DNA of 59,797 nt. It comes from Candidatus Magasanikiibacteriota bacterium (lineage in GTDB: Bacteria > Patescibacteriota > Minisyncoccia > UBA6257 > GWB1-50-10). Position numbers and translations under genes: made by a program. Shown here one piece after another: positions 5,319 through 52,363 of the stretch; position 1 is the stretch's first letter, and the number at the start of each line of letters is the position of its first letter. The DNA is taken from NCBI GenBank assembly GCA_042218035.1, contig JBDGRM010000032.1:1-59797 (forward strand), given 5' to 3'. The notes under the pieces are model-generated. The model had not been told where the DNA came from. It was given only the letters and a program-made list of their open reading frames with translations, and did no database searches.

Positions 5319-6824
5319 TTAGGAGGAGGAAATCACTTCTATATCTTCTTTTATCTCCTTTGCTTTCGTAAGCACGGCATCACCATACCAGAATCTGTAT
5401 GTCCACCATCTGTTCCCTGCGTAGTATTTTGTGGCAGCACATCTTTCTCTTAGTTTTCTTTTAGACAGGACATGAGAATATTCCTGTGCATAGTTTTGAC
5501 AGTCAGGACTTTTTAGTAACTTTTTTATATAAAGGGCTGTAGCTATAAATGCATCGGTATTATTCCAAGGATTAGAAGGGTCATCTCCACCTGTTAGTTG
5601 TCTAATTTCATCTTCTCTTTTTATGTATTTCCATTCCCCGTTTACTTTTTCAAAGCCTCCGTATATTGCCCAGGTGGAGGGTATAAATTGAGCCGGCCCC
5701 ATAGCACCTCCATATGATCCGTGTTTTGTAATAGGGCAAGATACTTGAGCTACTGTAGAGTTGGGTTGAATATTGAGGTTATCTAATATTGCCCTGAAAA
5801 CGGGAATATCCCTTTCGGGGTGCATAGCGTTCTTATAATTGCATTGACCTACATTTTCCCCCAACCTTGATTCTCTTGCAAGGATAGCCATTATGAGTGG
5901 AGCTCTTACACCTGTGGCACTTTCCGCTAGTTTGGCATATTTATAGGCCTTTTCAAAAGTTAGTTCGCCTCCTCCAACCAGTTTAAAGATTTGTTTTCTT
6001 ATTTCTGCTGCTGTTTGCTTTGTTTTTTGAAGTCTTTTTCTGTATTGATATTTTTTGCTTTCAGTAGCTTGTAAAAGTTGTCTTTTTTGTTTCTTAGCGA
6101 CTGCTAGCTCTTGTTTTTGGTTTTTTCTTATCCTTTTGAGGTTTTTAACATCTTGTTTTTCCAACCTCAACTCTCTTTTTTGTTTTAGAAGCTTGTCTTT
6201 TAATTTTACTACTTTGTTAAGGGAGCTTTGGAGGTTGTTTTGTAACATGAGCATCTCATTTATCTTTCGGAAAAAGTCAGAGATTTCCTTATTTTTTAAA
6301 AGTATTGCTAAAAAACTTTGGTTTTCTATTTGGTATAAGGTTTCAATTGATCTTCCCAGAGCATTTTTGTGCTCTTCTATTTTGTTTTGGGTTCTATTTA
6401 TTTTTTGCTGGGTTTTGTAGATATCTTGGTTTAGTTTTTGGAGGGTTACATTAACGGCTTCAATTTTTAAATTCATTTTGTTTATTCTGGCTCTCAACCT
6501 GGATATTTCATTTTGTAGGCTTCTTTCTTTTTGGGCTATATTCTGAATGCGTTTTTGTTGTGTATTTATCTTTTGTTCCAGTTGGGTTAACTTTTGTTCC
6601 AATTTGGCTCTTTGCCCTTTTGTAAGTTGATCAGCGGTACTTGTTGCTTGTTGTGCCTTTTTTTGTGTGGTGGTGCTTTTTTTGTTTTGGGCTGCCTTAC
6701 TGAGCTTTAAAAGGAAAGGAAGGGTAAGGATTGCTATAAAAAACAAAAAAACTACCCCTAACTTAATATTGAGGTAGCCTTTTTTATTTTGGGTAGCCTT
6801 TTTTGTTTTTGAGTAATTATTCAT
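5319..6824 (-). CDS. Membrane-anchored coiled-coil protein with a C-terminal lytic transglycosylase (SLT)-like domain
   Basis: N-terminal TM segment (LGVVFLFFIAILTLPFLL). About 250 aa of K/Q/E-rich heptad-like sequence. C-terminal AILARESRLGEN (catalytic Glu-Ser context) and GPAQFIPSTW. Confidence 0.65.
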   Translation of the reverse strand: MNNYSKTKKATQNKKGYLNIKLGVVFLFFIAILTLPFLLKLSKAAQNKKSTTTQKKAQQATSTADQLTKGQRAKLEQKLTQLEQKINTQQKRIQNIAQKERSLQNEISRLRARINKMNLKIEAVNVTLQKLNQDIYKTQQKINRTQNKIEEHKNALGRSIETLYQIENQSFLAILLKNKEISDFFRKINEMLMLQNNLQSSLNKVVKLKDKLLKQKRELRLEKQDVKNLKRIRKNQKQELAVAKKQKRQLLQATESKKYQYRKRLQKTKQTAAEIRKQIFKLVGGGELTFEKAYKYAKLAESATGVRAPLIMAILARESRLGENVGQCNYKNAMHPERDIPVFRAILDNLNIQPNSTVAQVSCPITKHGSYGGAMGPAQFIPSTWAIYGGFEKVNGEWKYIKREDEIRQLTGGDDPSNPWNNTDAFIATALYIKKLLKSPDCQNYAQEYSHVLSKRKLRERCAATKYYAGNRWWTYRFWYGDAVLTKAKEIKEDIEVISSS

Positions 6825-6869: not shown

Positions 6870-7547
6870 TTATTCTGTCATTTCTTCATCTTCCATCTCT
6901 GCCACTTCCTCTTCTTCGCTTCCCTCTTCTAGGGGGCTTTCTTCTTCAGTTTCTAGTTCTCCAAGTTCTCCAGGCATAATGGTTTCGAGCTCTTCTTCTT
7001 CCTCTTCTTCCCGTTTTTCTGAAACACTTACTATTACTGTGTCTGGATCTCCCATTATTTCAATTTCTTCTTTTGTTTCTAAATCTTGAATATGAATCAT
7101 GTCACTTTCTTCTTCTAACTCTGTAAGATCAACTTCTATTTCTTGAGGAATTTCATCGGGAAATGCTTTGATTTCTACTTCGTTTAATATCTTGACTGCG
7201 GTAAATCCTTCTTTTTCTATTGGAGCCTCTCCGATGAATTTTAAAGGAACAGTGGTGGTAAGTTTCTCGTCCTTGCTTATTTTATAAAAATCAATGGCAA
7301 GTGGTTTTCGAGAGATAGGATGATATTGAACGTCATATATAAGGACAGGAACCTCTTTGCCTTCTATTTGTAGATCAACTATTTGACTCATCCCTGCCTG
7401 TTCAAACACTGTATTGAAATCTTTTTCTTTTACTGCTACGTGCTCGTTTTCAAAATCTTTTCCATACACTTCAGCAGGAATAATACCCTCTTTCCTTAAG
7501 TTTTTTGGTTTGGTGTCCGTATTTCTTTTTTGAACTTGTAATTCCAT
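6870..7547 (-). CDS. rplY: Ribosomal protein L25/Ctc with a long acidic C-terminal tail
   Basis: LRKEGIIPAEVYGK near the N-terminus and two beta-rich domains. The last ~45 aa are mostly E/D. Confidence 0.85.
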   Translation of the reverse strand: MELQVQKRNTDTKPKNLRKEGIIPAEVYGKDFENEHVAVKEKDFNTVFEQAGMSQIVDLQIEGKEVPVLIYDVQYHPISRKPLAIDFYKISKDEKLTTTVPLKFIGEAPIEKEGFTAVKILNEVEIKAFPDEIPQEIEVDLTELEEESDMIHIQDLETKEEIEIMGDPDTVIVSVSEKREEEEEEELETIMPGELGELETEEESPLEEGSEEEEVAEMEDEEMTE

Positions 7548-7557
7548 TTTTAGAAAT

Positions 7558-7887
7558 TTAGTTTAGTTTTTCTTTTGCTTTTTGGGCTAACTCTTCAGTT
7601 TCATCGGTTTTTTCCGGTTCATCATTATTATTTTCTGAACCTTCTCCTTGCTTATTTTTTTGTTTTTCCATTTCGGCTCTTTTTTCTTTTGCTTTTTGTC
7701 TTCTTTTCTCAAATTTTTCTGCTCTACCTGCTGTGTCTACCAGCTGATCTTCTCCAGTATAGAACGGGTGGCAGTTACTGCATATTTCAATTTCAATGTC
7801 TTCTTTTGTAGAACCGACCTCGTAGGTTTGGCCGCAAGCACATTTTATTTTGGTTTTTTGGTATTTTGGGTGAATGTCCTCTTTCAT
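7558..7887 (-). CDS. rpmE: Ribosomal protein L31 with a K/E-rich C-terminal extension
   Basis: MKEDIHPKY...CACG...[11 protein letters not shown] place the start at the internal Met (7887), not the ORF-track start at 7917. Confidence 0.85.
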
Positions 7888-8079: not shown

Positions 8080-9999
8080 ATGGCAGAACCTCAAGATCCA
8101 AGAGATTATACGGCAAAAGACATAAAAGTTCTATCTGGCCTTGATCCGGTAAGAAAAAGGCCGGGTATGTATATAGGCTCTACTGGCTCTGATGGACTAC
8201 ATCACCTTATTTGGGAGGTGGTAGATAATGGTATTGATGAAGCTATGGGTGGTCATGCTGACGAGATTGAGGTGAAGTTGTTGGAAGACGGCCGGGTTCA
8301 GGTTAAAGATAATGGTAGAGGAATTCCTGTTTCTGAACATGAAGAAAGTGGCAAATCAGCTTTGGAAACTGTTATGACCACCTTGCACGCTGGAGGTAAA
8401 TTCGGTGGAGAGGGTTACAAGGTGTCTGGAGGTTTGCATGGAGTAGGGGTTTCAGTTGTTAATGCTTTGTCTTCGCACATGAAAGTTGAGGTTTGCAGAG
8501 AAGGAGAAAAGTATGTTCAGGAGTATGAGCAAGGCTCTCCGGAGAGTGACTTAAAAAATGAAGGTAAATGCAGTAATTCGGGCACAAAGATAACTTTCAA
8601 GCCGGATTCTGAAATATTTTCTACTTTAGATTTTAATATAGACAGAATTAAAAATAGACTTCGTCAGCAGGCTTATTTAACAAAAGGTACCAATTTAAAA
8701 GTTGTAGATGAAAGAGAAGGTTCAGATATCCCTAAGTCCTATAGTTTTTATTTTGATGGGGGACTCGCCTCTTATTTGGATTATTTGGTAGGAGCCGCTG
8801 ACAGAATTGTTAAGAATGATTTGTATGTTCATAGAGAGCTTGATGACGTGGAGGTAGAAATAGCTCTGACCTACACTGATGACACTGAATATGAAGAAAT
8901 TTCCTTCGCTAATCATATAAGAACTGTTAACGGAGGTACTCACGTAACGGGCTTCCGTTCGGCTTTAACAAGAACTCTGAATAAATATGGCCGGAACAAT
9001 AAGCTTTTGAAGAAGTCAGAAGACAACCTTACAGGCTCGGATGTTAGAGAAGGTTTGGTGGTGGTTATATCGGCTAAGCTGAAAGAACCTCAGTTTGAAG
9101 GCCAGACTAAAGGGAAGTTGGGTAATCCAGAAGCTAGAAGTGCAGTTGAAAAGGTTACCGGAGAAGCGCTTGAGGAATTTTTGGGTCAATACTCTAAAGA
9201 CGCAAAAAGGATATTAGAAAAGAACAAAGTAGCTAAGAAGGCTCGGAAAGCTGCTAAAGCTGCAAAGGATACAGTGGTAAGAAAGGGGGCAATGGAAGGC
9301 CTTGCTTTGCCTGGTAAGCTTTCGGATTGCACTTCTAGAGACCCGTCGGAGTCAGAACTTTTCATCGTGGAAGGTGACAGTGCAGGAGGGAGTGCTAAGA
9401 GTGGGCGAGATAGAAGGACTCAAGCAATTCTTCCTTTAAGGGGTAAGATTTTAAATGTTGAAAAGGCAAGGCTTGATAAGATGCTTAAGAACAAGGAAAT
9501 TAAATCTCTTGTTATAGCACTGGGTACTGCTATAGGAGATAGTTTTGATATAGATGAGTTGAGGTACGATAAAATAATCATAATGACTGATGCGGATGTG
9601 GATGGGGCTCATATTAGAACTTTGTTGCTGACTTTGTTTTATCGTTATTTTTACGAAATTATTCAAGAAGGCCACCTTTATATCGCTCAGCCACCTTTGT
9701 ATCAAGTTAAAAAAGGCAGGAAATCAGAGTATGCTTATTCAGAAAAAGAAAAAGAAAAACTGGTTGAAGAAATGGGAAAGCGAGCAGGGGTTCAGAGATA
9801 CAAAGGACTTGGTGAAATGAATCCTGAGCAACTTTGGAAAACTACCATGAATCCTGAAAATAGAATTTTGAAAGAAGTAAAGGTGGAAGATGCAGAAGAG
9901 GCGGATAGACTTTTTGATGTTCTCATGGGAAAGGATGTCGCTCCCCGCAAGAAATTTATCCAGTCAAAAGCAACTGCAGTTGAAAACTTGGACGTTTAA
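8080..9999 (+). CDS. gyrB: DNA gyrase subunit B
   Basis: GLDPVRKRPGMYIGS, LHHLIWEVVDNGIDE, GGLHGVG, EGDSAGGSAK, and Toprim PLRGKILNVE / DADVDGAHI. 639 aa. Confidence 0.97.
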   Translation: MAEPQDPRDYTAKDIKVLSGLDPVRKRPGMYIGSTGSDGLHHLIWEVVDNGIDEAMGGHADEIEVKLLEDGRVQVKDNGRGIPVSEHEESGKSALETVMTTLHAGGKFGGEGYKVSGGLHGVGVSVVNALSSHMKVEVCREGEKYVQEYEQGSPESDLKNEGKCSNSGTKITFKPDSEIFSTLDFNIDRIKNRLRQQAYLTKGTNLKVVDEREGSDIPKSYSFYFDGGLASYLDYLVGAADRIVKNDLYVHRELDDVEVEIALTYTDDTEYEEISFANHIRTVNGGTHVTGFRSALTRTLNKYGRNNKLLKKSEDNLTGSDVREGLVVVISAKLKEPQFEGQTKGKLGNPEARSAVEKVTGEALEEFLGQYSKDAKRILEKNKVAKKARKAAKAAKDTVVRKGAMEGLALPGKLSDCTSRDPSESELFIVEGDSAGGSAKSGRDRRTQAILPLRGKILNVEKARLDKMLKNKEIKSLVIALGTAIGDSFDIDELRYDKIIIMTDADVDGAHIRTLLLTLFYRYFYEIIQEGHLYIAQPPLYQVKKGRKSEYAYSEKEKEKLVEEMGKRAGVQRYKGLGEMNPEQLWKTTMNPENRILKEVKVEDAEEADRLFDVLMGKDVAPRKKFIQSKATAVENLDV

Positions 10000-37293: not shown

Positions 37294-37378
37294 GAGATTT
37301 ACCAAAAGTGGAAGGAGCCTTTTCTATAAATGAATAACTTTTCTGTAAGTAAGTCTTTATTTGATACAATTATTACTG

Positions 37379-37803
37379 ATGATGAATGCTGAAAAGAAAA
37401 TAAAAGAGCTGGGTGAAAAAGCGGATATTCAAATAAATGGAGACAGGCCCTGGGACATTAAGGTTCATAATGATGATTTTTATAAAAGAATCTTATCTCA
37501 AGGAACTTTAGGGTTGGGAGAGTCTTACATGGATGGGTGGTGGGACTGTGAACGTGTTGACGAGATGATCTCAAAAGCGATAAAAGCAGACCTCGCCGAT
37601 GAAATAAAATTTAATCCGGTTATGATTTTTTCCGCCATTAAGGCGGCTATTTTTAATTTAGCTGACAAAACAAAGGCCTGGGTTTTAGGGGAGCATCATT
37701 ATGATGTAGGGAATGAATTATACGAAAAAATGCTGGACAAACGCATGATTTATACCTGCGGATGGTGGAGAGATGCGGATAACTTAGAGGAGGCTCAAGA
37801 TAA
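37379..37803 (+). pseudogene. cfa: 5' fragment (about 142 codons) of a cyclopropane-fatty-acyl-phospholipid synthase gene; a paralogous copy of the start of 40094-41200
   Basis: Its translation is collinear with the first ~145 aa of the full cfa. The two share a 51-nt identical run, tcaaaagcgataaaagcagacctcgccgatgaaataaaatttaatccggtt. Similarity stops abruptly at ~37803, before the SAM-binding motif. Confidence 0.85.
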
Positions 37804-37806
37804 TAC

Positions 37807-37832
37807 AAAAAGCCGCTCTCCAGCGGCTTTTT
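37807..37832. terminator. Symmetric hairpin (bidirectional terminator-like) at the cfa-fragment breakpoint
   Basis: aaaaagccgct-ctcc-agcggcttttt, 11-bp stem. Confidence 0.5.
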
Positions 37833-37834
37833 GT

Positions 37835-37972
37835 AATTGTGTCCCCTGATCTGCCCAGAGCCCGAGCTATGTCTGCTTGGGAGTAGTCTTTCTCAAGCAT
37901 GGCTTTGATTTCGTTTCTTTCGTCTTTGTCTATGTGTTTGTATGTGTTTTTGTCTTGTTTTTTGTCTTTCAT
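37835..37972 (-). mobile_element. Remnant of an IS30-family-like transposase N-terminal HTH
   Basis: DERNEIKAMLEKDYSQADIARALGRSGDTITKS resembles the ER..I..L...G.S...IA..LGRS.STI..E helix-turn-helix of IS30 transposases. No catalytic DDE region follows. Confidence 0.45.
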
Positions 37973-40093: not shown

Positions 40094-41200
40094 ATGATGG
40101 GAGCTGAGGAAAAAGTAAGGAAGCTGTCCGAAAAAGCAGACATTCGGATAAACGGAAACCGGCCTTGGGATATTCAAGTTCATAACAATGATTTCTACAG
40201 CAGAATATTATCTCAGGGAACTTTGGGTTTGGGAGAATCTTATATGGATGGGTGGTGGGACTGTGAACGTGTTGATGAGATGATTTCAAAAGCGATAAAA
40301 GCAGACCTCGCCGATGAAATAAAATTTAATCCGGTTGTGATTTTCGCCGCTGTCAAAGCGGCGATTTTTAATTTAGCTGACAAAACAAAAGCTTGGGTTT
40401 TAGGAGAACATCATTATGACGTAGGCAATGATCTGTATAAAAAGATGCTAGACGAACGCATGATTTACACCTGCGGATGGTGGAAAGATGCAGATAATTT
40501 GGAAGAAGCCCAAGAGAATAAACTCGATCTTATCTGCCGAAAATTGAATCTTAAAGAAGGCATGAGTGTTTTGGATATCGGGTGCGGTTGGGGTGGGTTC
40601 CTGAAATACGCTGTCAAAAATTACGGTGTCTCCGGTGTCGGTCTCACAATCTCTAAAGAACAAGCAAAACTTGCCAGAAAAATGTGTGAGGGGTTGCCTA
40701 TTGAGATAAAACTTAAAGATTACAGAGAAGAGGACAACGAATATGACCGTGTAGTTTCAATTGGCATGTTTGAGCACGTCGGATGGAAAAATCACAAAAA
40801 ATACATGAAAGCAGTAGAACGTTGCCTTAAGCCCGAAAGCCTTTCAATGCTTCATACCATAGGCCGGAACGAAAGCACTATAATGCTTGAACCTTGGACG
40901 AAGAAATATATTTTCCCCACCGGAACTATTCCATCTATAAAACAAATAGGAAAGTCAATGGAAGGACTGCTGATGATGGAAGACTGGCACAACTTCGGCC
41001 CTGATTATGACAAAACCCTCATGAGTTGGTATCGAAATTTCAATGACAGCTGGGATAGTCTGGAAGGATATGATGAAAGATTCAGAAGAATGTGGAACTA
41101 TTATCTTCAGTCGTGCGCGGGAGCATTCAGGGCGAGGCGTCTACAGTTATGGCAGATAGTCCTCTCAAACGGAGTGGACGGTTACAGATCTATTCGATAG
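40094..41200 (+). CDS. cfa: Cyclopropane-fatty-acyl-phospholipid synthase
   Basis: YMDGWWDC, HYDVGNDLY, SAM motif VLDIGCGWGGF, and FEHVG. 368 aa. Confidence 0.9.
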   Translation: MMGAEEKVRKLSEKADIRINGNRPWDIQVHNNDFYSRILSQGTLGLGESYMDGWWDCERVDEMISKAIKADLADEIKFNPVVIFAAVKAAIFNLADKTKAWVLGEHHYDVGNDLYKKMLDERMIYTCGWWKDADNLEEAQENKLDLICRKLNLKEGMSVLDIGCGWGGFLKYAVKNYGVSGVGLTISKEQAKLARKMCEGLPIEIKLKDYREEDNEYDRVVSIGMFEHVGWKNHKKYMKAVERCLKPESLSMLHTIGRNESTIMLEPWTKKYIFPTGTIPSIKQIGKSMEGLLMMEDWHNFGPDYDKTLMSWYRNFNDSWDSLEGYDERFRRMWNYYLQSCAGAFRARRLQLWQIVLSNGVDGYRSIR

Positions 41201-41368: not shown

Positions 41369-41400
41369 GTTGATAATTTGCTTTATTATCAACGGTTTTT
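41369..41400 (+). terminator. Intrinsic terminator-like hairpin 21 nt upstream of mod
   Basis: gttgataat-ttgcttt-attatcaac followed by ggttttt. Confidence 0.5.
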
Positions 41401-41421: not shown

Positions 41422-43494
41422 ATGAGCAATAACAACAAAATGAATCTTACTGATAGTGAACGGGAAGAGGTTCGTCGATTATTAGATAAGGGAAAGCCAT
41501 TGCCGGATAAATATCGCTTTAAACTTTTTGGCGATAAGCGAGAAGTGGAGCTTGTTTGGCACGGTAAGACTCATGAGGTGACAAACGCCGTTTTGCCATT
41601 TCAAACGATTGAGGAGGTGTGGGAGCCTAGAGAAGAAAAACCGGAAGAGGCTCAAGATCAGCTTATAGACACATCTGGCTCTCGTACAACTGGCTGGTCT
41701 AACAAGCTTATTTGGGGAGAGAATTCTTTGATACTTTCAAGTTTAAAAAACGGTCCGCTCAGAGATGAAATTGAACGTCAAGGCGGTATTAAACTTATTT
41801 ATATTGACCCCCCTTTTGATGTAGGTTCTGACTTTTCTATAGATATTAAAGTTGGGGATGAGACTTTAGAAAAAGAACCATCAATAATTGAGGAAATTGC
41901 ATATAGAGATACCTGGGGTGAGGGTACTGATTCTTGGATAGCGATGATATACGAACGTTTAAAGTTAATGAAGGATCTCTTAGCAGACGATGGCTCAATT
42001 TATGTACATTGCGACTGGCGAGTCACAGGGTATTTACGTCTGGTTCTGGACGAGATTTTTGGCAGAGAAAACTTCAGAAATGAGATTGCCTGGTGTTATA
42101 GCGGTCCAGGGAAAAATAATAATGCTTATACACGAAAACATGACACAATTTTCTTTTACGCCAAAGATAAAGACTCTCAAATATTTAATGTTCCTAGAAT
42201 AGAACATAAATCTGGAATTCATAATAAGGGTGCATTTATGGGGAAAGAGTCTGATGATTCCGAAGCTACAGTAAAAGAGTTAGAAGAAAAGGGCAAAAGG
42301 CTAGAGGATTGGTGGACAGATATATATACCGCAGATAGGAAGAGAGATGAGCTTGTTGGGTATCCAACCCAAAAACCGGTAGATCTTTTAAAAAGAATTA
42401 TCAAAGCTTCTTCTAATAAGGGCGATATCGTGGCAGATTTTTTTGTGGGGTCTGGTACTACTTCTGCAGCTGCTGAAAAATTGGGGCGAAAGTGGATATG
42501 TTCTGATCTTGGAAAGTTTGCTATTCATACTACCCGCAAGAGAATGATCAATATCCAAAGGGGGTTGAAAGAGAAGGGGGAAAGTTATCGTGCATTTGAA
42601 ATTTTAAACCTTGGACGTTATGAGAGGGAATATTATATAGGTGAATCTCAAGAGGGTTCCATAGATCAAAGAGAAGACGAATATGAATCATTAATACTTT
42701 CAGCTTATAAAGCCGAACCCGTTAGTGGGTTTTCAATGTTTGCCGGCAAGAAAAACGATCATATGGTAGCTGTGGGTCCGATTAATCTGCCAGTAACTCG
42801 GGGATGGGTGGAAAATGCAGTTGAAGAGGCGCTTGATAATAATATTACTAATGTAGATATACTTGCCTTTGAGTATGAGATGGGTCTTTTCCCCAGAATT
42901 CAGGAAGAAGCAAAGGAAAAAGGTGTATCACTCCATCTAAAAATTATTCCGCCTGAGGTTTTTGATAAGCGTGCAGTAGAAAAGGGTGAGGTTAAATTTT
43001 ACGATGTAGCGTGGATTGATGCAGAAGTATCTCAAAAGAAAGGCAAGGTGCGTGTTGAGCTTACTAACTTTTCAGTTAATTACAATCAGGATGCTGATTT
43101 GGACCCCGCAGATGATCTTAGAAAGCGAGGCAAAAAGGTTATCATTCGGAACGGCCAGGTTGTAAAACTTTCAAAAGACAAAGACGGCGTTGTTGAAGAA
43201 GAGATTGTTACTAAGGAGTGGACCGACTGGATTGATTATTGGGCTGTGGATTTTGATTTTGAAAGCAAAAAAGAAATTGTTCAAGTAGAGAATGAGGATG
43301 GGGAATTTGAAGAGAAATGGACCGGAAATTATATATTTGAGAATGAATGGCAAAGTTTCCGAACCAAAGATGATAGGGAGTTAGAGTTGGAAACCCCATG
43401 GCACGAAATTCAAGAAAGTAAGGCAGATCGTAAAATTGCTGTAAAAGTAGTTGATATATTTGGCAACGACACTATGAAAATAATTGAAACTTAA
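41422..43494 (+). CDS. mod: Type III restriction-modification methyltransferase (Mod), beta-class N6A/N4C MTase
   Basis: N-terminal ELVWHGK. Motif IV IYIDPPFDVGSDF lies upstream of motif I DFFVGSGTTSAAAEKLGRKW. 690 aa. Its stop is 2 nt before res. Confidence 0.9.
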   Translation: MSNNNKMNLTDSEREEVRRLLDKGKPLPDKYRFKLFGDKREVELVWHGKTHEVTNAVLPFQTIEEVWEPREEKPEEAQDQLIDTSGSRTTGWSNKLIWGENSLILSSLKNGPLRDEIERQGGIKLIYIDPPFDVGSDFSIDIKVGDETLEKEPSIIEEIAYRDTWGEGTDSWIAMIYERLKLMKDLLADDGSIYVHCDWRVTGYLRLVLDEIFGRENFRNEIAWCYSGPGKNNNAYTRKHDTIFFYAKDKDSQIFNVPRIEHKSGIHNKGAFMGKESDDSEATVKELEEKGKRLEDWWTDIYTADRKRDELVGYPTQKPVDLLKRIIKASSNKGDIVADFFVGSGTTSAAAEKLGRKWICSDLGKFAIHTTRKRMINIQRGLKEKGESYRAFEILNLGRYEREYYIGESQEGSIDQREDEYESLILSAYKAEPVSGFSMFAGKKNDHMVAVGPINLPVTRGWVENAVEEALDNNITNVDILAFEYEMGLFPRIQEEAKEKGVSLHLKIIPPEVFDKRAVEKGEVKFYDVAWIDAEVSQKKGKVRVELTNFSVNYNQDADLDPADDLRKRGKKVIIRNGQVVKLSKDKDGVVEEEIVTKEWTDWIDYWAVDFDFESKKEIVQVENEDGEFEEKWTGNYIFENEWQSFRTKDDRELELETPWHEIQESKADRKIAVKVVDIFGNDTMKIIET

Positions 43495-43496
43495 TT

Positions 43497-46172
43497 ATGG
43501 CTCTACATGAAGAATTTCCAAAATCTCCTCACGAGATTATAAAACCGGAGCATAGATGGTTTCCTGCTGAGGAGACGCTTGAAGAGGAGGGTAGAGCAAA
43601 ACTGCTTCCGCCGCTCGTTGCGGAATTGCGAAAGGAGGTTAAGGAATGGCGTGATTCTGGGTATGATGGTGCAAGCGATACCAGTAAGGCCCTACTTAAT
43701 TTTTGGTTTAATACCGAACATCCCCAAGAGCAGGCGGACGGTACCGTAAATTACTTTGAATACTATTTTGCTCAGCAAGAAGCTGTCGAGACTATAATTT
43801 GGCTACATGAAATAGCAGAAGTTAGAGATCCTTACGATCTTATGCAATTTGATGCGTCGGGCCTTGTTTCTAAGGATCACTTTGATGAGGTATGGACTAG
43901 ATTTGTGGTAAAAATGGCTACAGGGTCTGGCAAGACAAAAGTTCTATCTCTGGTTTTGGCATGGTGCTTTTTCCATAAGACATATGAGGAAGATTCTGAT
44001 TTAGCAAGAAACTTTTTGCTTATCGCTCCTAATGTAATTGTGTTTGAGCGCCTTAGAGATGACTTTGATGGGCTGGATGTATTTTACGAAGACCCTGTAA
44101 TACCGGAAAATGGCTATATGGGACAAAATTGGGAAAATGATTTTCAACTCGATGTGCATTTACAGGATGATGTAACCGCACATGAGCCTACAGGGAATAT
44201 TTTCTTGACTAACATACATCGTATTTATTCAAGTAGAGGAGAAGATGAGCCTAGTGGGCCTGAGGACGGCAAGGATTACTTTCTAGGAAAGAAGCCGCCA
44301 GCCGACTTACAAAGTGATGAGGTGACTGTAGGAGAGATTGTAAGAGATTTGGACGAGTTAGTTGTATTAAATGATGAGGCTCACCACATTCATGAGGCAG
44401 ACTTAGCATGGTTTCAAGCTATTGAGGATATTCATAATAATTTAGTACAAAAAGGATCTGAGCTGAGTTTACAGATTGATGTAACTGCAACCCCTAAAGA
44501 TTCTAACGGAAATATATTTGTACAAACTATTTGCGACTACCCGCTTGTAGAAGCTATTCATCAAGATGTGGTAAAGCGACCCGTAGTCCCTACACCCTCA
44601 GATCGGGGCATGTTAGAGGAACATGAATCGAGTAAATTTACTGAGCGATACAGAGACTTTATTAATTTAGGGTATAGGGAATGGGAAAAGGCTTATCCGA
44701 TTCACAAAAAACTTGGCCAAAAAGCAATACTGTTTGTAATGACAAGTGATACAAAAAACTGTGATGAAGTTGCAGAGTACCTAGCCCAACTTCCCAACTT
44801 ATCGGAAGAAGAAATCCTTGTGATACACACGAACAAAGATGGGAGTTATTCTCAGGCAAAAAGTAAGCGCGATTACCTTAATCAACTCAGAGAAGAGTCC
44901 AGTAGAATCGATTCATGGGATAGTCCCTATAAAGCAATAGTTTCAGTTTTAATGCTTCGCGAAGGCTGGGATGTTCAAAATGTTACAACCATCATCGGTT
45001 TGCGACCGTTTTCAGCTGAATCACAAATTTTACCGGAACAAGCGCTTGGGCGTGGCCTTCGTCGTATGTATCGAGGAGAAGAGGAGTCCGGAGATGAGAA
45101 ATTAAGCGTTGTTGGAACCCCTGCATTTATGGAGTTTGTAGAAGGAATTAAACGAGAGGGTGTTGACCTTGAAGAGGCTGCGATGAACTCAACCTCCGAT
45201 CCTGTAGCCCCTACTCTTATTGAGGTGGACAGAGATAATGAAAAGAAAGATATAGATAAATTGGACATTGAAATTCCTATTTTATCGCAGAGATTGTATA
45301 GAGAATACAAAAACCTTGAAGAGTTAGATCCTAGTTCTTTTGATAATGAAAAGTTTTCAGTTAAAGAGTTCAGTGAAGAAGAGAAGAAAGAAATTACATT
45401 TTGGGATATTGAAAGAGAGGAAGAATCTCACAAGACTAAGCTGGAGAACGTTAGGCCTGATTGGCGAAGTGTTATAGGTTATCTTACAAACAAGATACAG
45501 AAAGACATGCGTTTAGTATCAGGTCATAACGTTTTATATCCTAAGGTTCAGGAATTTATAGAAAAATATTTATTTGAAGAGGAAGTAAATCTATCGGATC
45601 CTAATGTGGTTAGGAATCTTTCAGAAATTGAAATACAGCGCACTATATATACTGAATTCCGGAAAGCGATTAATGAGTTAACGATCCAAGATTCTGGAAG
45701 CGCTGAGGTGCAAAGCCATATAAGCATAAAAGAGACCAGTCCGTTTACGACCAAAGACAAAGAAGCAGTATACTCTGATAAGACTGTTTTTAATAAAATT
45801 GTGGGCGACAGCCATTTTGAGCTTGAGTTTGCGGCATGGCTTGATGAACAGGATGACGTGATTTCATTTGCAAAGAATTACTTTGCTGTAAACTTTAAAA
45901 TTGAATACCAAAAAGAAGACGGTAATCTCTCTTACTTCTATCCAGACTTTTTTGTAAAAGTTGATGAAGACGAGGTGTGGGTTGTAGAGACTAAGGGTAG
46001 AGAAGATTTGGATGATGTAAGGAAGATAGAGAGATTAGAGAAATGGTGTAAAGATGTAAATGAAGTCCAGGACGAAACCGAATTTAAATACTTATACTTG
46101 AAAGAGGATGAATGGAACGAATGGCAAAGCAAGGCAGAGAGCTTCTTGAGCTTGGCCAATGGACTAAAATAA
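43497..46172 (+). CDS. res: Type III restriction enzyme Res subunit (SF2 helicase plus C-terminal PD-(D/E)xK nuclease)
   Basis: Walker A KMATGSGKT, DEAH box LNDEAHHI, motif VI QALGRGLRR, and C-terminal YPDFFVKVDEDEVWVVETKG. 891 aa. Confidence 0.9.
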   Translation: MALHEEFPKSPHEIIKPEHRWFPAEETLEEEGRAKLLPPLVAELRKEVKEWRDSGYDGASDTSKALLNFWFNTEHPQEQADGTVNYFEYYFAQQEAVETIIWLHEIAEVRDPYDLMQFDASGLVSKDHFDEVWTRFVVKMATGSGKTKVLSLVLAWCFFHKTYEEDSDLARNFLLIAPNVIVFERLRDDFDGLDVFYEDPVIPENGYMGQNWENDFQLDVHLQDDVTAHEPTGNIFLTNIHRIYSSRGEDEPSGPEDGKDYFLGKKPPADLQSDEVTVGEIVRDLDELVVLNDEAHHIHEADLAWFQAIEDIHNNLVQKGSELSLQIDVTATPKDSNGNIFVQTICDYPLVEAIHQDVVKRPVVPTPSDRGMLEEHESSKFTERYRDFINLGYREWEKAYPIHKKLGQKAILFVMTSDTKNCDEVAEYLAQLPNLSEEEILVIHTNKDGSYSQAKSKRDYLNQLREESSRIDSWDSPYKAIVSVLMLREGWDVQNVTTIIGLRPFSAESQILPEQALGRGLRRMYRGEEESGDEKLSVVGTPAFMEFVEGIKREGVDLEEAAMNSTSDPVAPTLIEVDRDNEKKDIDKLDIEIPILSQRLYREYKNLEELDPSSFDNEKFSVKEFSEEEKKEITFWDIEREEESHKTKLENVRPDWRSVIGYLTNKIQKDMRLVSGHNVLYPKVQEFIEKYLFEEEVNLSDPNVVRNLSEIEIQRTIYTEFRKAINELTIQDSGSAEVQSHISIKETSPFTTKDKEAVYSDKTVFNKIVGDSHFELEFAAWLDEQDDVISFAKNYFAVNFKIEYQKEDGNLSYFYPDFFVKVDEDEVWVVETKGREDLDDVRKIERLEKWCKDVNEVQDETEFKYLYLKEDEWNEWQSKAESFLSLANGLK

Positions 46173-46232
46173 CGGTACACAACATAAAGGACTGCGAGTT
46201 TTGAGAGCAAAAAATGAAAAGTTGATAGAGTT

Positions 46233-47116
46233 ATGAAAAAAAATTTAGTAAAAAACCTTGAAGAAACCCTAAAAGAGGTTTCGGACTTGAAAGTTGTTGA
46301 CGAAGGGTGGCAGAAGATTGTTTTAAAAGCTAATTACAAAGATACGTTAATAGCTTTAAAGCTTATTGAGGTTGAATTCCAAGATGAATCTAACCGTAAA
46401 ATTTTTAACGACATTGCTCTTAAGAGGGTAGAAAGGGAAATAGAAATAATGGAAAATATTAATCATAAAAACCTTTCTCAAAAGGCAGATTTAGAACCGG
46501 GCTTTGTAGGCATTAAGAGCAAGAAGTTTTTTATTATGGAGAAAAGTTTATTGACGGAGTAAGTTTGCACAAACTTATATCGGAATCGGATGAGGGGCTA
46601 TCTTTTAGTAAAAATTTAAAACTTTCTTGCGACTTGCTTAGAGCTATAAATAAGCTTTGGAAAATTAATAAAGTTCATAGAGATATCAAACCTAAGAATA
46701 TAATTTGGGATACAAAACATGAAGATTTTGTTTTAATAGATGCGGGGATATCTTTTGCTTTAGACGAAACTCCCCTTACTCAATCGGGTAAGACAGTAGG
46801 AACCCTGCCTTATATGTCTCCTGAGCAGATCAAGGGGCAGAAAAAATCTTTAGATTTTAGATCGGATATGTATTCTTTGGGTATCACAGTTTTCGAGTCC
46901 TCAACCGGCTTCCACCCGTATTTGGACAGAGAGACAACTTTTCGGGGGATTGAGGATCGTATTATAAGTGATCAAGTAAGATTAAGTGATTACAAAAGTG
47001 ATTGGCCAGTTGCATTTACTGAAACGGTTGATCAGTTCCTTAAAAAGAAGGCTTATTTAAGGCCCAGAAGTTGTGAGGCGGTTTTGGAGACTCTTAGTCA
47101 AATTGATTATAATTAA
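46233..47116 (+). pseudogene. Minimal eukaryote-like Ser/Thr protein kinase, interrupted by a 1-nt frameshift at the hinge (two ORFs, 46233-46562 and 46565-47116)
   Basis: N-lobe: IALKLI (catalytic Lys), RVEREIEIM (alpha-C Glu), FFIMEK (hinge). C-lobe frame: FIDGVSLHKLI, VHRDIKPKNIIW, LIDAGIS (DFG-like), GTLPYMSPEQ, DMYSLGIT. Adding one A or one T within aaaagttta (46542-46550) joins the frames. Confidence 0.8.
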
Positions 47117-47122
47117 TTTGAT

Positions 47123-48289
47123 ATGATTCTTGCTCAAGATGGGTGGGGACCCACTAATAAGATTAAACGGGGACTTAGAGAGGGGGTGGTTGAAGGCGTG
47201 ATATTTTGCCCAAAAACAAACAGCAAATCCAAGTCCAAGGATAGGATTAATAATTTTCTGGAGTCATTCGAGGATGAATTTTTTCTATTTGACCCCCATT
47301 TCTATGCTACTGTGATTTCTACTGATAGATCTGGGAAGCTAGAATCCCATTCTTATTACCAGAACTTAAATCCTGCCGATTTTACGGCTAGCGAGATCCA
47401 AGCTAGGGTGGGGGAAACTTTAGAATTTCAAAGAAGGTGCGGGTTAAATCGTGTAGTATCCCCTGGCTTGATAATAAATAATTTTAACGACAGATATTCC
47501 CAAATAAATTCACAGTTGTTTGCTGAATCAGTAGATAAGACTGAAGGCGGGGAAAATCTATTTGTTTGTTTGCCAATATCAGAAGAGGCGCTTAAGGATG
47601 AAGAAAAGATGGATTCATTTCTTAGCGAAGTTACTAGATTAAATACTGATGGATTTTATTTATTTGTAGAAAGGAGCTCCTATTCTTCTTTGCAGTGGTC
47701 TAATCCTCGCACTTTAAGTAATCTTATGTATCTTGTATATGTTTTATCTAGCCAAGGATATAGTGTGGTTGTAGGATACATTGATGTAGTGGGTTTGTTA
47801 TTATTAAGTACAGGAGCTAACTTTATTGCTAATGGGTGGTATCGTACACAACGGCAATATACAAGGAGACGATATGAGGAAAGAGGAGTAGGGAGGCCTC
47901 CCCGCTTAGAATATACCTCCCCTCATTTACTAAATTCTATTTATGTGGAAGATGAACTAAAGCCAATTTCTGAGCTTGGATTTCTAGATGAGGTTGTGGC
48001 AAATAATAAGATATCCCAAAAATTGAAAGAGGGTAGTCTACCAGAGGAGTGGACTAGAGAAGATTTTATGCTAAATCATTGGAGTGTTCTGCATAACATG
48101 TCTCAAAAGGTTGCCGACAAAAAGAATGTTGACAACAAACTAGACTGGATGAAGGGCAGGATTAGTTCTGCCCAATCTTTGTATTCTAAGTTGAAGAAGG
48201 AAGGTATAAATTTTGATACCAAAACAAATGAAAGACATTTACAAGTTTGGAAGGAAGCTATAGCCTTATTTCAAAGTAAGGAAAGGTAA
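47123..48289 (+). CDS. Hypothetical protein, 388 aa (orphan). The sequence shows an alternating beta/alpha pattern.
   Basis: Starts 6 nt after the kinase stop. Eight short hydrophobic strand-like segments (MILAQD, GVIFCP, FFLFDP, RVVSPGL, LFVCLPIS, GFYLFVE, SVVVGY, NFIANG) alternate with helix-like stretches. No named motif. Confidence 0.6.
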   Translation: MILAQDGWGPTNKIKRGLREGVVEGVIFCPKTNSKSKSKDRINNFLESFEDEFFLFDPHFYATVISTDRSGKLESHSYYQNLNPADFTASEIQARVGETLEFQRRCGLNRVVSPGLIINNFNDRYSQINSQLFAESVDKTEGGENLFVCLPISEEALKDEEKMDSFLSEVTRLNTDGFYLFVERSSYSSLQWSNPRTLSNLMYLVYVLSSQGYSVVVGYIDVVGLLLLSTGANFIANGWYRTQRQYTRRRYEERGVGRPPRLEYTSPHLLNSIYVEDELKPISELGFLDEVVANNKISQKLKEGSLPEEWTREDFMLNHWSVLHNMSQKVADKKNVDNKLDWMKGRISSAQSLYSKLKKEGINFDTKTNERHLQVWKEAIALFQSKER

Positions 48290-48301
48290 TTAATTTTATT
48301 A

Positions 48302-48982
48302 ATGCAAGAAAGTACATTCGCGAAAAGGTTTACGGAAATAAAACCAGACTTTGGATTAGGTCAAGATTTTGAATTAGTTAGAGAGTTGGAAACGCAAGCG
48401 GGCATCCCTGATTCGTTAGGTATTAGTTGTAAGGATGTAAAAACTCTTCTAGATTTTATGAGTAAGTATCCTGATATTAATTTAACTAACGGTTATTCGC
48501 AGATAATATCTCAACTTTATCCCAGAAACTTTGTCGAAATTGATCAAATATTTTCTAAAACTGATTTAAGTAAATCTTATTTTGATAGACATATCCAATT
48601 ACTAGAAAATAAAGACTTGATTGAGAGAGACATTAGGAACGACTCAAGGATAAGATTAGGGGAGAATTTTTCTATTCCTGAGTTGGATATATGGACTATT
48701 GAATTTAAAATGAGTGCGTGGAAATCAGCGTTGAAGCAAGCTATTAGGTACAGGCTATTTTCTTCTAAGGTGTTTGTGGTGATGCCATCGACTAAATTAG
48801 AATTTGTAAAAAAGAAGGAGGGTATTTTTAAAAAGTTTGGAATTGGTTTGGCTTTTTTTGATAGCGCTAAAGGCGACTTAGATATTGAAGTGCCCCCCAG
48901 GAAGAATGTAGCAAATGCTAAAAGTTACTACATTGACGTTATTGGTAGATTATCTCAGAGCGATAAAATAAATTTTCGTTAA
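48302..48982 (+). CDS. Hypothetical protein, 226 aa, with a wHTH-like segment and a possible PD-(D/E)xK-like core
   Basis: SKSYFDRHIQLLENKDLIERD (wHTH-like recognition region). ELDIWTIEFKMSAWKSALKQAIRY (D...ExK pattern), followed by the beta-strand-like VFVVMP and GIGLAFFD. Confidence 0.55.
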   Translation: MQESTFAKRFTEIKPDFGLGQDFELVRELETQAGIPDSLGISCKDVKTLLDFMSKYPDINLTNGYSQIISQLYPRNFVEIDQIFSKTDLSKSYFDRHIQLLENKDLIERDIRNDSRIRLGENFSIPELDIWTIEFKMSAWKSALKQAIRYRLFSSKVFVVMPSTKLEFVKKKEGIFKKFGIGLAFFDSAKGDLDIEVPPRKNVANAKSYYIDVIGRLSQSDKINFR

Positions 48983-49001
48983 TTGATAACAGCAAAAGAC
49001 T

Positions 49002-49030
49002 TAACCCAAATACAATACTTGTTTGGGTTA
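49002..49030 (+). terminator. Hairpin at the end of the five-gene island (weak terminator candidate)
   Basis: taacccaaa-N11-tttgggtta. The downstream T tract is weak. Confidence 0.35.
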
Positions 49031-49096
49031 GTATATTTGCTTGATAAATTTTTATCTCAAGTGTTTTAACTATTATTGTTTGCCCCAATTCATACA

Positions 49097-49185
49097 AAAT
49101 GGGACACCCTTTTTATATGTGTCCCATTTGTCCCATTTTCCTTGTTTTTATAAAAATGTGACACTCTTTTTATAGTGTCACATTT
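49097..49185. repeat. Two tandem ~57-bp units, each holding an 11-bp-arm palindrome, with a compensatory change between the units
   Basis: Unit 1: aaatgGgacac-N11-gtgtcCcattt (49097-49129). Unit 2: aaatgTgacac-N10-gtgtcAcattt (49154-49185). Each is followed by a third half-site copy (gtcccattt / gtaacattt). Confidence 0.85.
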
Positions 49186-49217
49186 GTAACATTTGCTTGA
49201 AATTTGAGGTCAATAGT

Positions 49218-49244
49218 GAGGGTAGCTACCACTAGGCTACCCTC
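49218..49244. other. 9-bp-stem hairpin, gagggtagc-N9-gctaccctc
   Basis: Read directly. The gctacc word recurs at 49287. Confidence 0.6.
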
Positions 49245-49377
49245 TATTAAACTTGAAATGGCAACTGAGAGGCCAGCGCCAGTAAGGCTACCACCTAATA
49301 AACTTTGAACTAACCTCTTTTAGGTGATGATATAATGTGGTGTGAGTTATCTGTTCATATTCTAACTTTTAGTACTT

Positions 49378-50085
49378 ATGTCCATTAAATCAGGATCAAG
49401 AAAGTTACCTGCTTATTTCAAAAAAAGTAAGATTGATCATTATATTCTGTTTTTGTATGGAGGCGGTAAAGACAAAGGAAAAGAGAAGTTTAAATTATGG
49501 CAGGATAAGTTAGCAAAGGAAGGTATTGGATCGTTGAGTTTTGATTTTTCTGGTATGGGAGATGCTCCTGGACAAATGAAAGAGGAGTCTTTGGAGAGCA
49601 GAATTTCAGAAGCGAGATCAGCTGCTTTGTGGCTTCGTGATGAAGAGCCTTCTGCAGAATTTAGTTTGTATGGAGTCAGTATGGGAGGGTATGTTGCTTT
49701 GGGTTTGGTAGATAAAATGCCGGAGATGTTTTCATCTTTAATTTTGCAAGCCCCTGCTGCTTATTCTCAAAATGCTCATAATTTACCTTTTGATGATTCG
49801 TTTACCGAAGAATTACACGAAGAGAACAGTTGGAAAGATTCTTATTCTTTTAAATGGTTAAAGGAATATGAGGGGCGGGTTTTGTTTGTTAGTATGGAAA
49901 AAGACAATGTTATTCCTGAGCCGATTTTAGAAAGATACAAGGATATTTTAGATGAGAAGGATTGTGAATTTGTAACGATTCCTGATGCCCCTCACGGCAT
50001 ATGGGGTGATACTGAAGAAGATGCTAAATTTCGAGAGATTGTTTACGAAAATTTTTGTGAGTTTTTATTGGGCAAAGACAATTAA
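49378..50085 (+). CDS. Alpha/beta hydrolase-fold protein
   Basis: Nucleophile elbow LYGVSMGGYVA, late acidic residue/His (EKDNVIP, PDAPHG). 235 aa. Confidence 0.75.
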   Translation: MSIKSGSRKLPAYFKKSKIDHYILFLYGGGKDKGKEKFKLWQDKLAKEGIGSLSFDFSGMGDAPGQMKEESLESRISEARSAALWLRDEEPSAEFSLYGVSMGGYVALGLVDKMPEMFSSLILQAPAAYSQNAHNLPFDDSFTEELHEENSWKDSYSFKWLKEYEGRVLFVSMEKDNVIPEPILERYKDILDEKDCEFVTIPDAPHGIWGDTEEDAKFREIVYENFCEFLLGKDN

Positions 50086-51406: not shown

Positions 51407-52363
51407 ATGAAAAGCAACCCTTTTAAAAAATCGTGGATTTGGGTTGTTGTGTTATTTGTGCTTTTTGCTTTATTGGGTTTTTCTGCATTTCAAAGAGCAG
51501 AAAAGGATAGAGTTGGAAAGGGGCTTTCTGAAAAAAGTGAGCCAATTAATTCTACAAGCACTTCGGAGCAGGACAAGAAAGGCACTGCAAGCATTGTGGA
51601 GGTTAAAAACCGAAAAGATAGTCAGAAAACTGAAAAGGGAAATAATCTTAAAACTGCTACTGTGACATATGTGATAGACGGGGATACGGTGAAGTTGGAT
51701 AGTGGTGAAAAAGTTAGACTTCTGGGAATAAATACTCCGGAAAGTGGCCAACCCTACTTTTCAGAAGCAAGAGATAAAATGGTCGAATTGGTTGAAGACA
51801 AGCAGGTTAAATTGGAGAGAGATGTAACCAACAGAGGTAGGTATGGCAGATTGTTGCGGTATATTTGGGTTGGAGATACTTTGGTTAATGCTAAAATAGC
51901 GAGACTTGGATTCGCTAAGTCTTATTCAAAACCCCCTGATATTAAATACCAAAAGAAGATTTTAGAAGCTGTAAGATATGCAAGAGAGAATGATTTGGGG
52001 CTCTGGAATAAACCTTCTGATTCAGAGAAAAACAAAAAAATCACCATTCTAAATTTTGAACCGAATGCTCCGGGTAATGACAATAAAAATAAAACCCGGG
52101 AGTATTTTGCCCTAAAAAACGAAGGTACTGAGTCTATAAACTTAGACGGCTGGACGGCAAGGGATGAAGCGAACAAGACCTTCACTTTTCCGGATGTTGT
52201 TCTTGAACCTAACTCTAAGATAACGGTTCGGAGCGGTTGTGGTGAAAGCTCCACCACAACTTTATATTGGTGTGCGGATGAGTACGCCGTTTGGAACAAT
52301 AGCGGGGATACTTTATTTTTGCGAAACCCTCAAGGTGAGTTAGTATTAGAATACAGTTATTAA
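51407..52363 (+). CDS. Membrane-anchored or secreted thermonuclease (SNase) fused to a lamin-tail domain (LTD)
   Basis: N-terminal TM. SNase VIDGDTVKLDSGEKVRLLGINTPE...RGRYGRLLRYIW. LTD-like ILNFEPNAPGNDNKNKTREYFALKNEGTESINLDGW. Confidence 0.85.
   Translation: MKSNPFKKSWIWVVVLFVLFALLGFSAFQRAEKDRVGKGLSEKSEPINSTSTSEQDKKGTASIVEVKNRKDSQKTEKGNNLKTATVTYVIDGDTVKLDSGEKVRLLGINTPESGQPYFSEARDKMVELVEDKQVKLERDVTNRGRYGRLLRYIWVGDTLVNAKIARLGFAKSYSKPPDIKYQKKILEAVRYARENDLGLWNKPSDSEKNKKITILNFEPNAPGNDNKNKTREYFALKNEGTESINLDGWTARDEANKTFTFPDVVLEPNSKITVRSGCGESSTTTLYWCADEYAVWNNSGDTLFLRNPQGELVLEYSY

Follow-up and report, generated by a model that had tools for sequence, protein, structure and literature searches.

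A kinase, TIM-barrel and nuclease-like gene cassette beside a Type III restriction-modification pair: a candidate kinase-based conflict system

The island described here lies at positions 41,422 to 48,982 of a stretch of DNA from a Candidatus Magasanikiibacteriota bacterium (assembly GCA_042218035.1, contig JBDGRM010000032.1, positions 1 to 59,797 of the forward strand). The whole stretch that was analysed, 59,797 nucleotides (nt) long, is called the window. The island consists of a Type III restriction-modification (R-M) pair, Mod and Res, followed on the same strand by three further genes, here called K, T and N. These encode a Hanks-type Ser/Thr protein kinase, a predicted TIM-barrel protein and a winged-helix protein with nuclease-like motifs. 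Sequence comparison across genomes identifies K-T-N as a widespread, previously unnamed and autonomous three-gene cassette, and the trio is a good candidate for a new kinase-based conflict system. The features of the island are:

41369..41400, forward strand: terminator-like hairpin at the 5' edge of the island, after the cfa gene (stem-loop 41369-41397)
41422..43494, forward strand: Mod, Type III beta-class N6-adenine DNA methyltransferase, 690 amino acids (aa), intact (PADLOC, Pfam)
43497..46172, forward strand: Res, Type III SF2 helicase-like ATPase with a C-terminal PD-ExK endonuclease, 891 aa, intact (Pfam, PADLOC)
46233..47116, forward strand: K, Hanks-type Ser/Thr protein kinase of the trio, with a 1-nt frameshift (46233-46562 and, in the -1 frame, 46565-47116)
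46527..46545, forward strand: frameshift site, in a T6 run at 46527-46532 (favoured) or an A4 run at 46542-46545, one base short compared with intact homologues
47123..48289, forward strand: T, 388-aa TIM-barrel protein of an unannotated family, with an overall fold modelled as similar to tRNA-guanine transglycosylase (TGT) (AlphaFold2, Foldseek; GenBank ABEI53_02970)
48302..48982, forward strand: N, 226-aa protein with a winged helix inserted in a PD-(D/E)xK-like core (motif columns, Pfam; GenBank ABEI53_02975)
49001..49031, forward strand: terminator-like hairpin closing the array (12-bp stem, -12.6 kcal/mol, z -3.0 against shuffled sequences)

The open reading frames (ORFs) of the island form a same-strand array at 41422-43494, 43497-46172, 46233-46562 with 46565-47116, 47123-48289 and 48302-48982, with intergenic gaps of 2, 60, 6 and 12 nt. 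A first-pass annotation of the window, made from its letters alone, had described five co-directional genes with a kinase of about 294 aa as a single ORF. The strand and the gaps are as it gave them, but the kinase gene is split into two ORFs by a 1-nt deletion. Hairpins had been placed at both ends of the array, and both are more stable than shuffled controls. The upstream one has a 9-bp stem followed by GGUUUUU (41369-41397; -8.3 kcal/mol, z -2.4 against shuffles).

K, T and N occur as a unit far beyond this genome. Loci were drawn from protein look-ups, GTDB genomes, JGI metagenomes and PLSDB plasmids, and the trio was detected with family hidden Markov models (HMMs) on six-frame ORFs, with non-redundant loci retained where they had enough flanking sequence. 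A word-indexed search with the 388-aa T protein returned two relatives only, both encoded immediately downstream of a Ser/Thr kinase gene, with a homologue of N either following or convergent. In the full collection the three genes lie side by side in the window and in 33 of 33 other non-redundant loci (at least 34 loci), and every incomplete locus ends at a contig edge. The view that the three downstream genes form a separate module was part of the first-pass annotation, which proposed looking for them as neighbours in other genomes; they are complete in all 33.

Three gene orders are found in the other loci. K and T are followed by a convergent N in 28 (K>T>N<) and by a co-directional N in three (K>T>N>, of which the window is a fourth case), while N precedes the pair in two (N>K>T>), on Bacillus and haloarchaeal plasmids. 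The stop codon of K overlaps the start of T by 4 nt in 13 loci, and the convergent 3' ends of T and N overlap by exactly 42 nt in nine loci of different lineages. The pairwise divergences of K, T and N correlate with r values of 0.90, 0.91 and 0.94, which 0 of 2000 permutations reach. Such correlation fits inheritance and transfer as a unit, with shared phylogeny contributing to it.

The loci with the 42-nt overlap include L004, L009, L010, L012, L013, L015, L019 and L020. In these overlap loci the end of T lies opposite the stretch that encodes a conserved C-terminal tail of N (…RRLHRRIRPESI…), a tail that is missing from the co-directional N of the window.

The trio is found in seven bacterial phyla and on a haloarchaeal plasmid, a taxonomic census that is a lower bound. 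Its hosts include Patescibacteria, Latescibacterota, Dehalococcoidia/Chloroflexota, Planctomycetota and an alphaproteobacterium of the Rhodospirillaceae, and it resides on plasmids of Bacillus mycoides, B. bombysepticus, Arthrobacter FB24 (plasmid 3) and the haloarchaeon Natribaculum breve. The copy in B. mycoides strain SIN2.2, on plasmid NZ_CP128131 (65234-67922), is an intact trio, as is that in the 55.5-57.7 kb region of Arthrobacter FB24 plasmid 3. The cassette is also rare: two Bacillus plasmids among 72,556 plasmids carry it, and a pattern-limited scan of 185,579 species genomes, made with a 3-sequence alignment, gave nine matches. In the Natribaculum breve plasmid (CP095393, L042; 79.9-81.0 kb) the trio stands in the order N>K>T> in a record with essentially no annotation, and a 229-aa ORF (7165-7854 of this locus) directly follows T.

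K is a Hanks-type Ser/Thr protein kinase. Its family conserves the motifs ALK, R..RE, HRDIKP.N, D.G, GT..Y.SPEQ and LDFRSD, so that the counterparts of the VAIK lysine, the alpha-C glutamate, HRDxKxxN, DFG and APE are all present, and the usual glycine-rich loop is replaced by GGQK (EGWQK in the window). In the window the span 46233-47116 measures 884 nt, which is no multiple of 3. Frame 0 ends after 109 aa at a TAA (46560-46562), and the C-lobe is encoded in the -1 frame; GenBank accordingly lists two coding sequences, ABEI53_02960 (hypothetical, 109 aa) and ABEI53_02965 (protein kinase, 183 aa). A programmed -1 frameshift was considered and rejected, because no X_XXY_YYZ heptamer lies in the 0 frame within 46516-46560.

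For scoring candidate repairs, the kinase-family profile left out the window sequence. Restoring a base in the T6 run scores 270.9 bits, and in the A4 run 265.8 bits. The T6 repair gives …KKFFYYGEKFIDG…, in which FFYYGEKFIDG agrees with the family pattern [YIV][FY]xE[EK][WF][IL][ED]G; it alone restores the conserved glutamate of the family. The repaired protein matches the trio-kinase profile end to end (E 1.2e-84). It carries ALK, REIEI, HRDIKPKN, DAG and SPEQ, so the earlier statement that all core kinase motifs are present holds for the product of the repaired gene. Its matches include Pfam Pkinase (1.2e-28), PADLOC PD-T4-6 (8.8e-40, the best PADLOC match) and mad6 (1.5e-28). Since the remainder of the gene is undamaged and retains every catalytic motif, the lesion would be recent, heterogeneous in the population or an assembly error. 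It could be a real mutation or an error of assembly, and the cassette is probably off or decaying in this genome through a 1-base deletion if it is not affected by an assembly indel.

T belongs to a large family that had gone without annotation. An exhaustive HMM search of a protein library, counted at 50% clustering, gave 1186 representatives at E <= 1e-3, of which 301 reach E <= 1e-30. No match was found in Pfam (50 members scanned), NCBIfam, PADLOC, PHROGs or PDB sequences. The first-pass annotation had described a 388-aa protein without a motif it could name; the lack of a database family stands, and what it missed is the TIM-barrel family. The AlphaFold2 model, built from a 50-sequence alignment, has a mean predicted local distance difference test (pLDDT) of 95.6 and a predicted template modelling score (pTM) of 0.94. 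Its parts are a beta/alpha barrel of eight strands, a beta-hairpin and a helical bundle at the C-terminus.

In Foldseek searches the T model ranks TGTs first, with bacterial, human and archaeosine enzymes at E 2-7e-4. The alignments cover about 385-430 columns with a TM-score (TMq) of 0.49-0.51 and a root-mean-square deviation (rmsd) of 7-8 Å, whereas those with other TIM barrels cover the barrel only (about 250-290 columns, TMq about 0.35). A low-confidence model from three sequences gives the same ranking. The T model aligns with TGT structures along the whole of T and has acidic residues at strand ends, but T has neither the N-terminal beta-sheet extension nor the zinc cluster, nor a Pfam TGT match. 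T as a true TGT or DpdA was rejected on the empty Pfam scan of 50 members, an hhalign probability of 0.1 and the missing zinc motif. As modelled, the relationship is weak (TM ~0.5) and one of fold only.

The near-invariant residues of T are Q5, D57, P114, Y179, Y219, D221, W239, Y264, S266 and W320. Those that are polar or aromatic lie at or just past the C-terminal ends of the barrel strands, where they line an acidic and aromatic pocket in the model. TIM-barrel enzymes have their active site at the C-terminal ends of the strands, and because the conserved residues of T cluster in this usual place, T is predicted to be an enzyme. Its chemistry may be guessed, from the resemblance to TGT and the two invariant aspartates, to be of a glycosyl-transfer or glycosidase type acting on a nucleoside or nucleic acid.

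N belongs to a family of ~225-280 aa with at least 96 homologous clusters, as found with a profile of the 226-aa family. It contains an ArsR/MarR-type winged helix at about residues 50-120; MarR_2 or HTH_20 is recognised in 33 of 43 members, and the best PDB sequence match is YgaV (E 0.005). This domain lies between G-x-P-D (D37) and E134-x-K136 … Q146-x-x-x-Y150. D37, E134, K136, Q146 and Y150 are invariant across 43 diverse members, and D, ExK and Q are also retained in the distant Bacillus, Arthrobacter and haloarchaeal plasmid copies.

The order D…ExK…QxxxY is the motif set of PD-(D/E)xK (RecB/Cas4-like) nucleases. N is accordingly a putative PD-(D/E)xK-like nuclease, assigned at the level of motifs, and the winged helix-turn-helix (wHTH)-like segment and D…ExK pattern noted in the first reading hold at that level in the 43-member alignment. 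Like Mrr-type and RecB/Cas4-like nucleases with a fused winged helix, N combines a wHTH with D, ExK and Q(xxxY), ordered and spaced as expected; it differs in that its wHTH sits inside the core, after the D strand and before the ExK strand, and not at an end, and in that its core has no profile match to a named PD-(D/E)xK family. PDB profile searches, run for both families (T and N) and for the N core without the wHTH, returned only wHTH regulators or noise.

The trio was compared with the named defence systems that use a protein kinase. The earlier suggestion that the set fits no known system stands, and no PADLOC model covers T or N. PADLOC, Pfam, NCBIfam and PHROGs supply neither a named defence system nor a housekeeping family for T or N, and for defence systems this applies to the window and the distant plasmid copies alike. 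Literature text searches, which were not exhaustive and covered subscription journals incompletely, found no description of a trio of kinase, TIM/TGT and nuclease. The TerY-P triad was rejected, as no trio protein has a vWA (TerY) or PP2C domain.

Stk2 of Staphylococcus and PD-T4-6 are stand-alone defence kinases, and K resembles them as a small Hanks-type kinase with little beyond its catalytic domain. These kinases reportedly act alone, phosphorylating many host proteins. In contrast, K is linked to T and N in every locus (the window and 33 others) and has the family-specific motifs GGQK and LDFRSD. A stand-alone kinase defence was rejected on this constant flanking by T and N, and the 8.8e-40 match is generic to Hanks kinases.

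Pgl/BREX type 2 (PglW) and MADS (MAD6) combine a protein kinase and a DNA methyltransferase in one locus, as is the case here. They differ from the island in that its methyltransferase is part of an ordinary Type III pair, which no other trio locus contains. Pgl/BREX type 2 was rejected because PADLOC finds no PglX, PglY or PglZ match among the five proteins and K scores 40 bits against NCBIfam PglW, for which the cutoff is 990. MADS is an eight-gene operon with the kinase MAD6, and MAD6, MAD7 and MAD8 are mandatory in its authors' model (bioRxiv 10.1101/2023.03.30.534895). It was likewise rejected, with no mad7 or mad8 match and 74 bits for K against NCBIfam MAD6 (cutoff 460). For the kinases of distant trio members the best-scoring model is mad6 (8.7e-52). 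K is not placed in PD-T4-6 or MADS, since its scores against the PD-T4-6 and mad6 models are no stronger in kind than that against PknB.

The cassette occurs in mobile settings, with serine recombinases or integrases nearby in some loci and the transfer region of a conjugative plasmid in another. Inverted repeats flank it in three loci, L004 (200 nt, 81% identity), L009 (48 nt) and L017 (33 nt), unlike the trio of the window, which has no flanking inverted repeat. The repeats lie at 8842-9041 and 11897-12096 in L004, at 5926-5973 and 9009-9056 in L009, and at 6702-6734 and 10207-10239 in L017. In L004 the repeat takes in the 5' ends of the kinase ORF and of the nuclease-like ORF. Such repeats could be shared promoter or operator regions of two convergent units, or the termini of the cassette.

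In L004 and L005 (ENA ERZ25068966 and ERZ25071132) the trio lies on an apparently circular element of ~19.7 kb, as the L005 contig measures 19,724 nt and the genes recur at an interval of 19,769 nt in the 29-kb L004 contig. The element also encodes HicA-like toxins, DDE transposases of the insertion sequence (IS) type and an AAA_25 protein.

Several copies of the cassette are broken. K is disrupted in the window and in L006 (9.0-10.0 kb), whose sibling contigs are intact. In L019 (7995-9352) T is split and the glycine of the kinase DFG motif is changed to arginine, and on the B. bombysepticus plasmid CP126687 (L047, 5001-6188) T is present as two coding sequences beside intact K and N. N is intact and retains its catalytic residues in all four. 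Because these copies keep an intact N, N would not be lethal in the absence of a functional K or T. The same pattern therefore speaks against T as a protective modification enzyme and against simple dependence of the toxin-antitoxin kind, and agrees with a system that would be off by default and in which K and T would be needed to activate N.

On modest balance, the island is best read as two independent modules standing head to tail, of which the second is a new kinase-controlled nuclease conflict system. The conflict role is suggested indirectly by the mobile contexts, the rarity and patchiness of the cassette, its variable flanks in unrelated genomic settings, its three gene orders, the inverted repeats around it in three loci and its adjacency to an R-M pair in this genome. 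In such a system the translationally coupled K-T pair would be the sensing and activating part and would sense an invading element. Once triggered, K would phosphorylate T, N or both; phosphorylation would switch on N, which would bind DNA through its winged helix and cut it. T would add a second catalytic step on a nucleoside or nucleic-acid substrate. A more specific version, in which K gates a transglycosylase/glycosylase-like TIM barrel that removes or exchanges bases in invader nucleic acid or tRNA, with the winged-helix PD-ExK nuclease then cutting, is improbable as it stands. Base excision followed by cleavage under the control of a kinase would be a way of defence that has not been described before.

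A number of results weigh against a kinase-controlled nuclease conflict system. At the level of the proteins, hhalign of the T family against E. coli Tgt (sequence verified against PDB) gives the probability of 0.1 cited above, identity to TGTs is 11-13%, and the T family has no conserved zinc-binding Cys/His cluster (CxCxxC…H). The N core with the winged helix removed gives no Pfam or PDB-sequence match, and the similarity of K to the PD-T4-6 and MAD6 models is no better than to PknB-type housekeeping kinases (PknB 2.4e-33). At the level of the loci, the 149 neighbouring ORFs from 13 loci are mostly housekeeping, with one AbiEi and a few weak PADLOC candidate matches, and there is no general defence-island signal around the trio. 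No trio copy was found in INPHARED phages or in IMG/VR, the latter scanned by short peptide patterns and not exhaustively. Low-coverage long-read assemblies are the source of several of the broken copies, which may be errors.

The trio might instead be a selfish addiction or plasmid-competition module, which would act much like a toxin-antitoxin pair, by post-segregational killing or by excluding rival plasmids, and would have no antiphage role. Its copies on plasmids, on the small circular element, in a conjugative transfer region and near recombinases or integrases are in keeping with this, as are the inverted repeats of three loci and the lack of any find in phage collections. Yet most copies are chromosomal and lie among housekeeping genes, and the single loss of K or T is tolerated with the other genes intact, which speaks against a simple toxin/antitoxin dependency. 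Such a module is unlikely.

Less likely still is a modification-restriction system in which T, resembling TGT/DpdA, would exchange bases to mark the host's own nucleic acid, N would attack DNA that lacks the mark, and K would have a regulatory part. In its favour, TGTs are the nearest fold match to T over the full length, the invariant D57 and D221 of T lie at strand ends and may map onto TGT residues there, and the convergent arrangement of N with K-T in 28 of 33 loci recalls many R-M pairs. This account would make the loss of T lethal, whereas T is broken and the catalytic residues of N are kept in L019 and CP126687. It also meets the missing zinc motif and sequence-profile link to TGT, and no trio locus has co-transferred genes for 7-deazaguanine or other base synthesis.

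The third alternative is a signalling or metabolic module outside conflict, with a kinase-regulated enzyme and a winged-helix transcription regulator whose D…ExK pattern would have no nuclease function. Most TIM barrels are metabolic enzymes, the neighbourhoods are mostly metabolic or housekeeping, and N has a bona fide ArsR/MarR-type wHTH beside a core that matches no nuclease family. On the other side, no metabolic pathway shows conserved synteny with the trio, and horizontal spread is indicated by its three gene orders and by its occurrence in archaea and in phyla far apart. The retention of D, ExK and Q through the 43-member alignment and the distant plasmid copies would be unexpected for a pure regulator, and pseudogenisation has been repeated. 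Such a module is doubtful, and ranks below the two preceding alternatives.

The first module of the island is by sequence an intact, conventional Type III R-M pair, with its activity predicted on that basis. Mod matches PADLOC MTase_III (E 5.8e-122) over profile positions 21-614 of 616 and Pfam N6_N4_Mtase (1.1e-47), and its DPPF motif (about aa 139) precedes FVGSG (about aa 355). Res, whose gene starts 2 nt after mod, matches Pfam ResIII (9.1e-16), a C-terminal RE_endonuc domain (3.9e-5) and PADLOC REase_III (1.6e-16), and has a partial match to the NCBIfam BPTD_3080-family restriction endonuclease (4.6e-87) that is below the cutoff of that model. Its translation carries GSGKT, DEAH and QALGRGLRR. 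The motifs that the first reading quoted for Mod, Res and the kinase are all present in the translations, and PADLOC, Pfam and NCBIfam profiles agree with its call of a standard Type III pair. The two genes resemble EcoP15I-like Mod/Res in the domains they encode, in the order of motifs and genes and in their close linkage; nothing in them is unusual, and the trio genes lie outside the Type III family.

Functional coupling of the trio to the R-M pair, which had also been proposed, is unsupported because no other trio locus has an adjacent R-M system. No homologue of the window's Mod or Res lies within about 8 kb of the trio in any of the 33 other loci, and a PADLOC scan of the 149 neighbouring ORFs from 13 loci found no R-M component. 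The trio is therefore autonomous; its adjacency to a Type III R-M pair is specific to this genome and would reflect the clustering of defence genes and not a shared mechanism. The 60-nt spacer between Res and K has no stable structure (z +0.5) and no terminator, so that co-transcription of the trio with Mod-Res is possible and need not imply a common mechanism. That all five genes form one composite system, with the trio as partner or backstop of the R-M pair as in Pgl/BREX type 2 or MADS, is the least probable alternative: the shared strand, the unstructured spacer with hairpins only at the array ends and the occurrence of kinases within methylation-based systems such as MADS (bioRxiv 10.1101/2023.03.30.534895) are outweighed by the 33 loci and 149 ORFs without R-M genes, by the lack of PglX/Y/Z or MAD7/8 equivalents in the island, and by a frameshifted K beside intact Mod and Res, which indicates that the R-M pair does not depend on K.

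The genes flanking the island are housekeeping genes, a cyclopropane-fatty-acid synthase gene (cfa, 40094-41200) on the 5' side and an alpha/beta-hydrolase gene (49378-50085) on the 3' side. A scan of the window for mobile-element borders found no flanking direct or inverted repeats, tRNA, integrase or Rfam element at the island. Further upstream lies a 162-aa ORF (37361-37849) whose C-terminus aligns with no more than the first ~47 positions of the cyclopropane-synthase (CMAS) profile. This ORF, 2.2 kb upstream of the full-length cfa, resembles a gene fragment or partial duplicate.

Between the 3' hairpin and the next gene, positions 49096-49190 contain two copies, 91% identical and 57 nt apart, of AAAATG[G/T]GACAC[C/T]CTTTTTATA. 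Both copies lie inside palindromes (GGGACAC…GTGTCCC and GTGACAC…GTGTCAC), followed by ATTTGTxxCATTT, and may be an operator or promoter repeat. Positions 49200-49300 hold GC-rich hairpins (e.g. GAGGGTAGC…GCTACCCTC) within an AT-rich spacer of 350 nt, with no tRNA and no Rfam match. Beyond the hydrolase gene, a 318-aa protein (51407-52363) combines a staphylococcal-nuclease domain and a lamin-tail domain with a hydrophobic segment at its N-terminus, and is likely an exported nuclease.

In the window itself, the Mod-Res pair is ordinary and the kinase gene is broken. The wider comparison defines two previously unannotated families, a large TIM-barrel family with an enzyme-like pocket and a winged-helix-inserted nuclease-like family. 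Since both are strictly linked to a protein kinase, they offer a direct route to the substrate of a bacterial kinase and to a new enzymatic activity. The cassette probably escaped the defence catalogues through its mostly uncultured hosts and its position, which is usually outside defence islands; its cultured carriers, the plasmids of Bacillus mycoides SIN2.2, Arthrobacter sp. FB24 and Natribaculum breve, make it testable. If K, T and N are a working conflict system, they would represent a new multi-gene architecture among the few kinase-based prokaryotic defences, one that spans Bacteria and Archaea.

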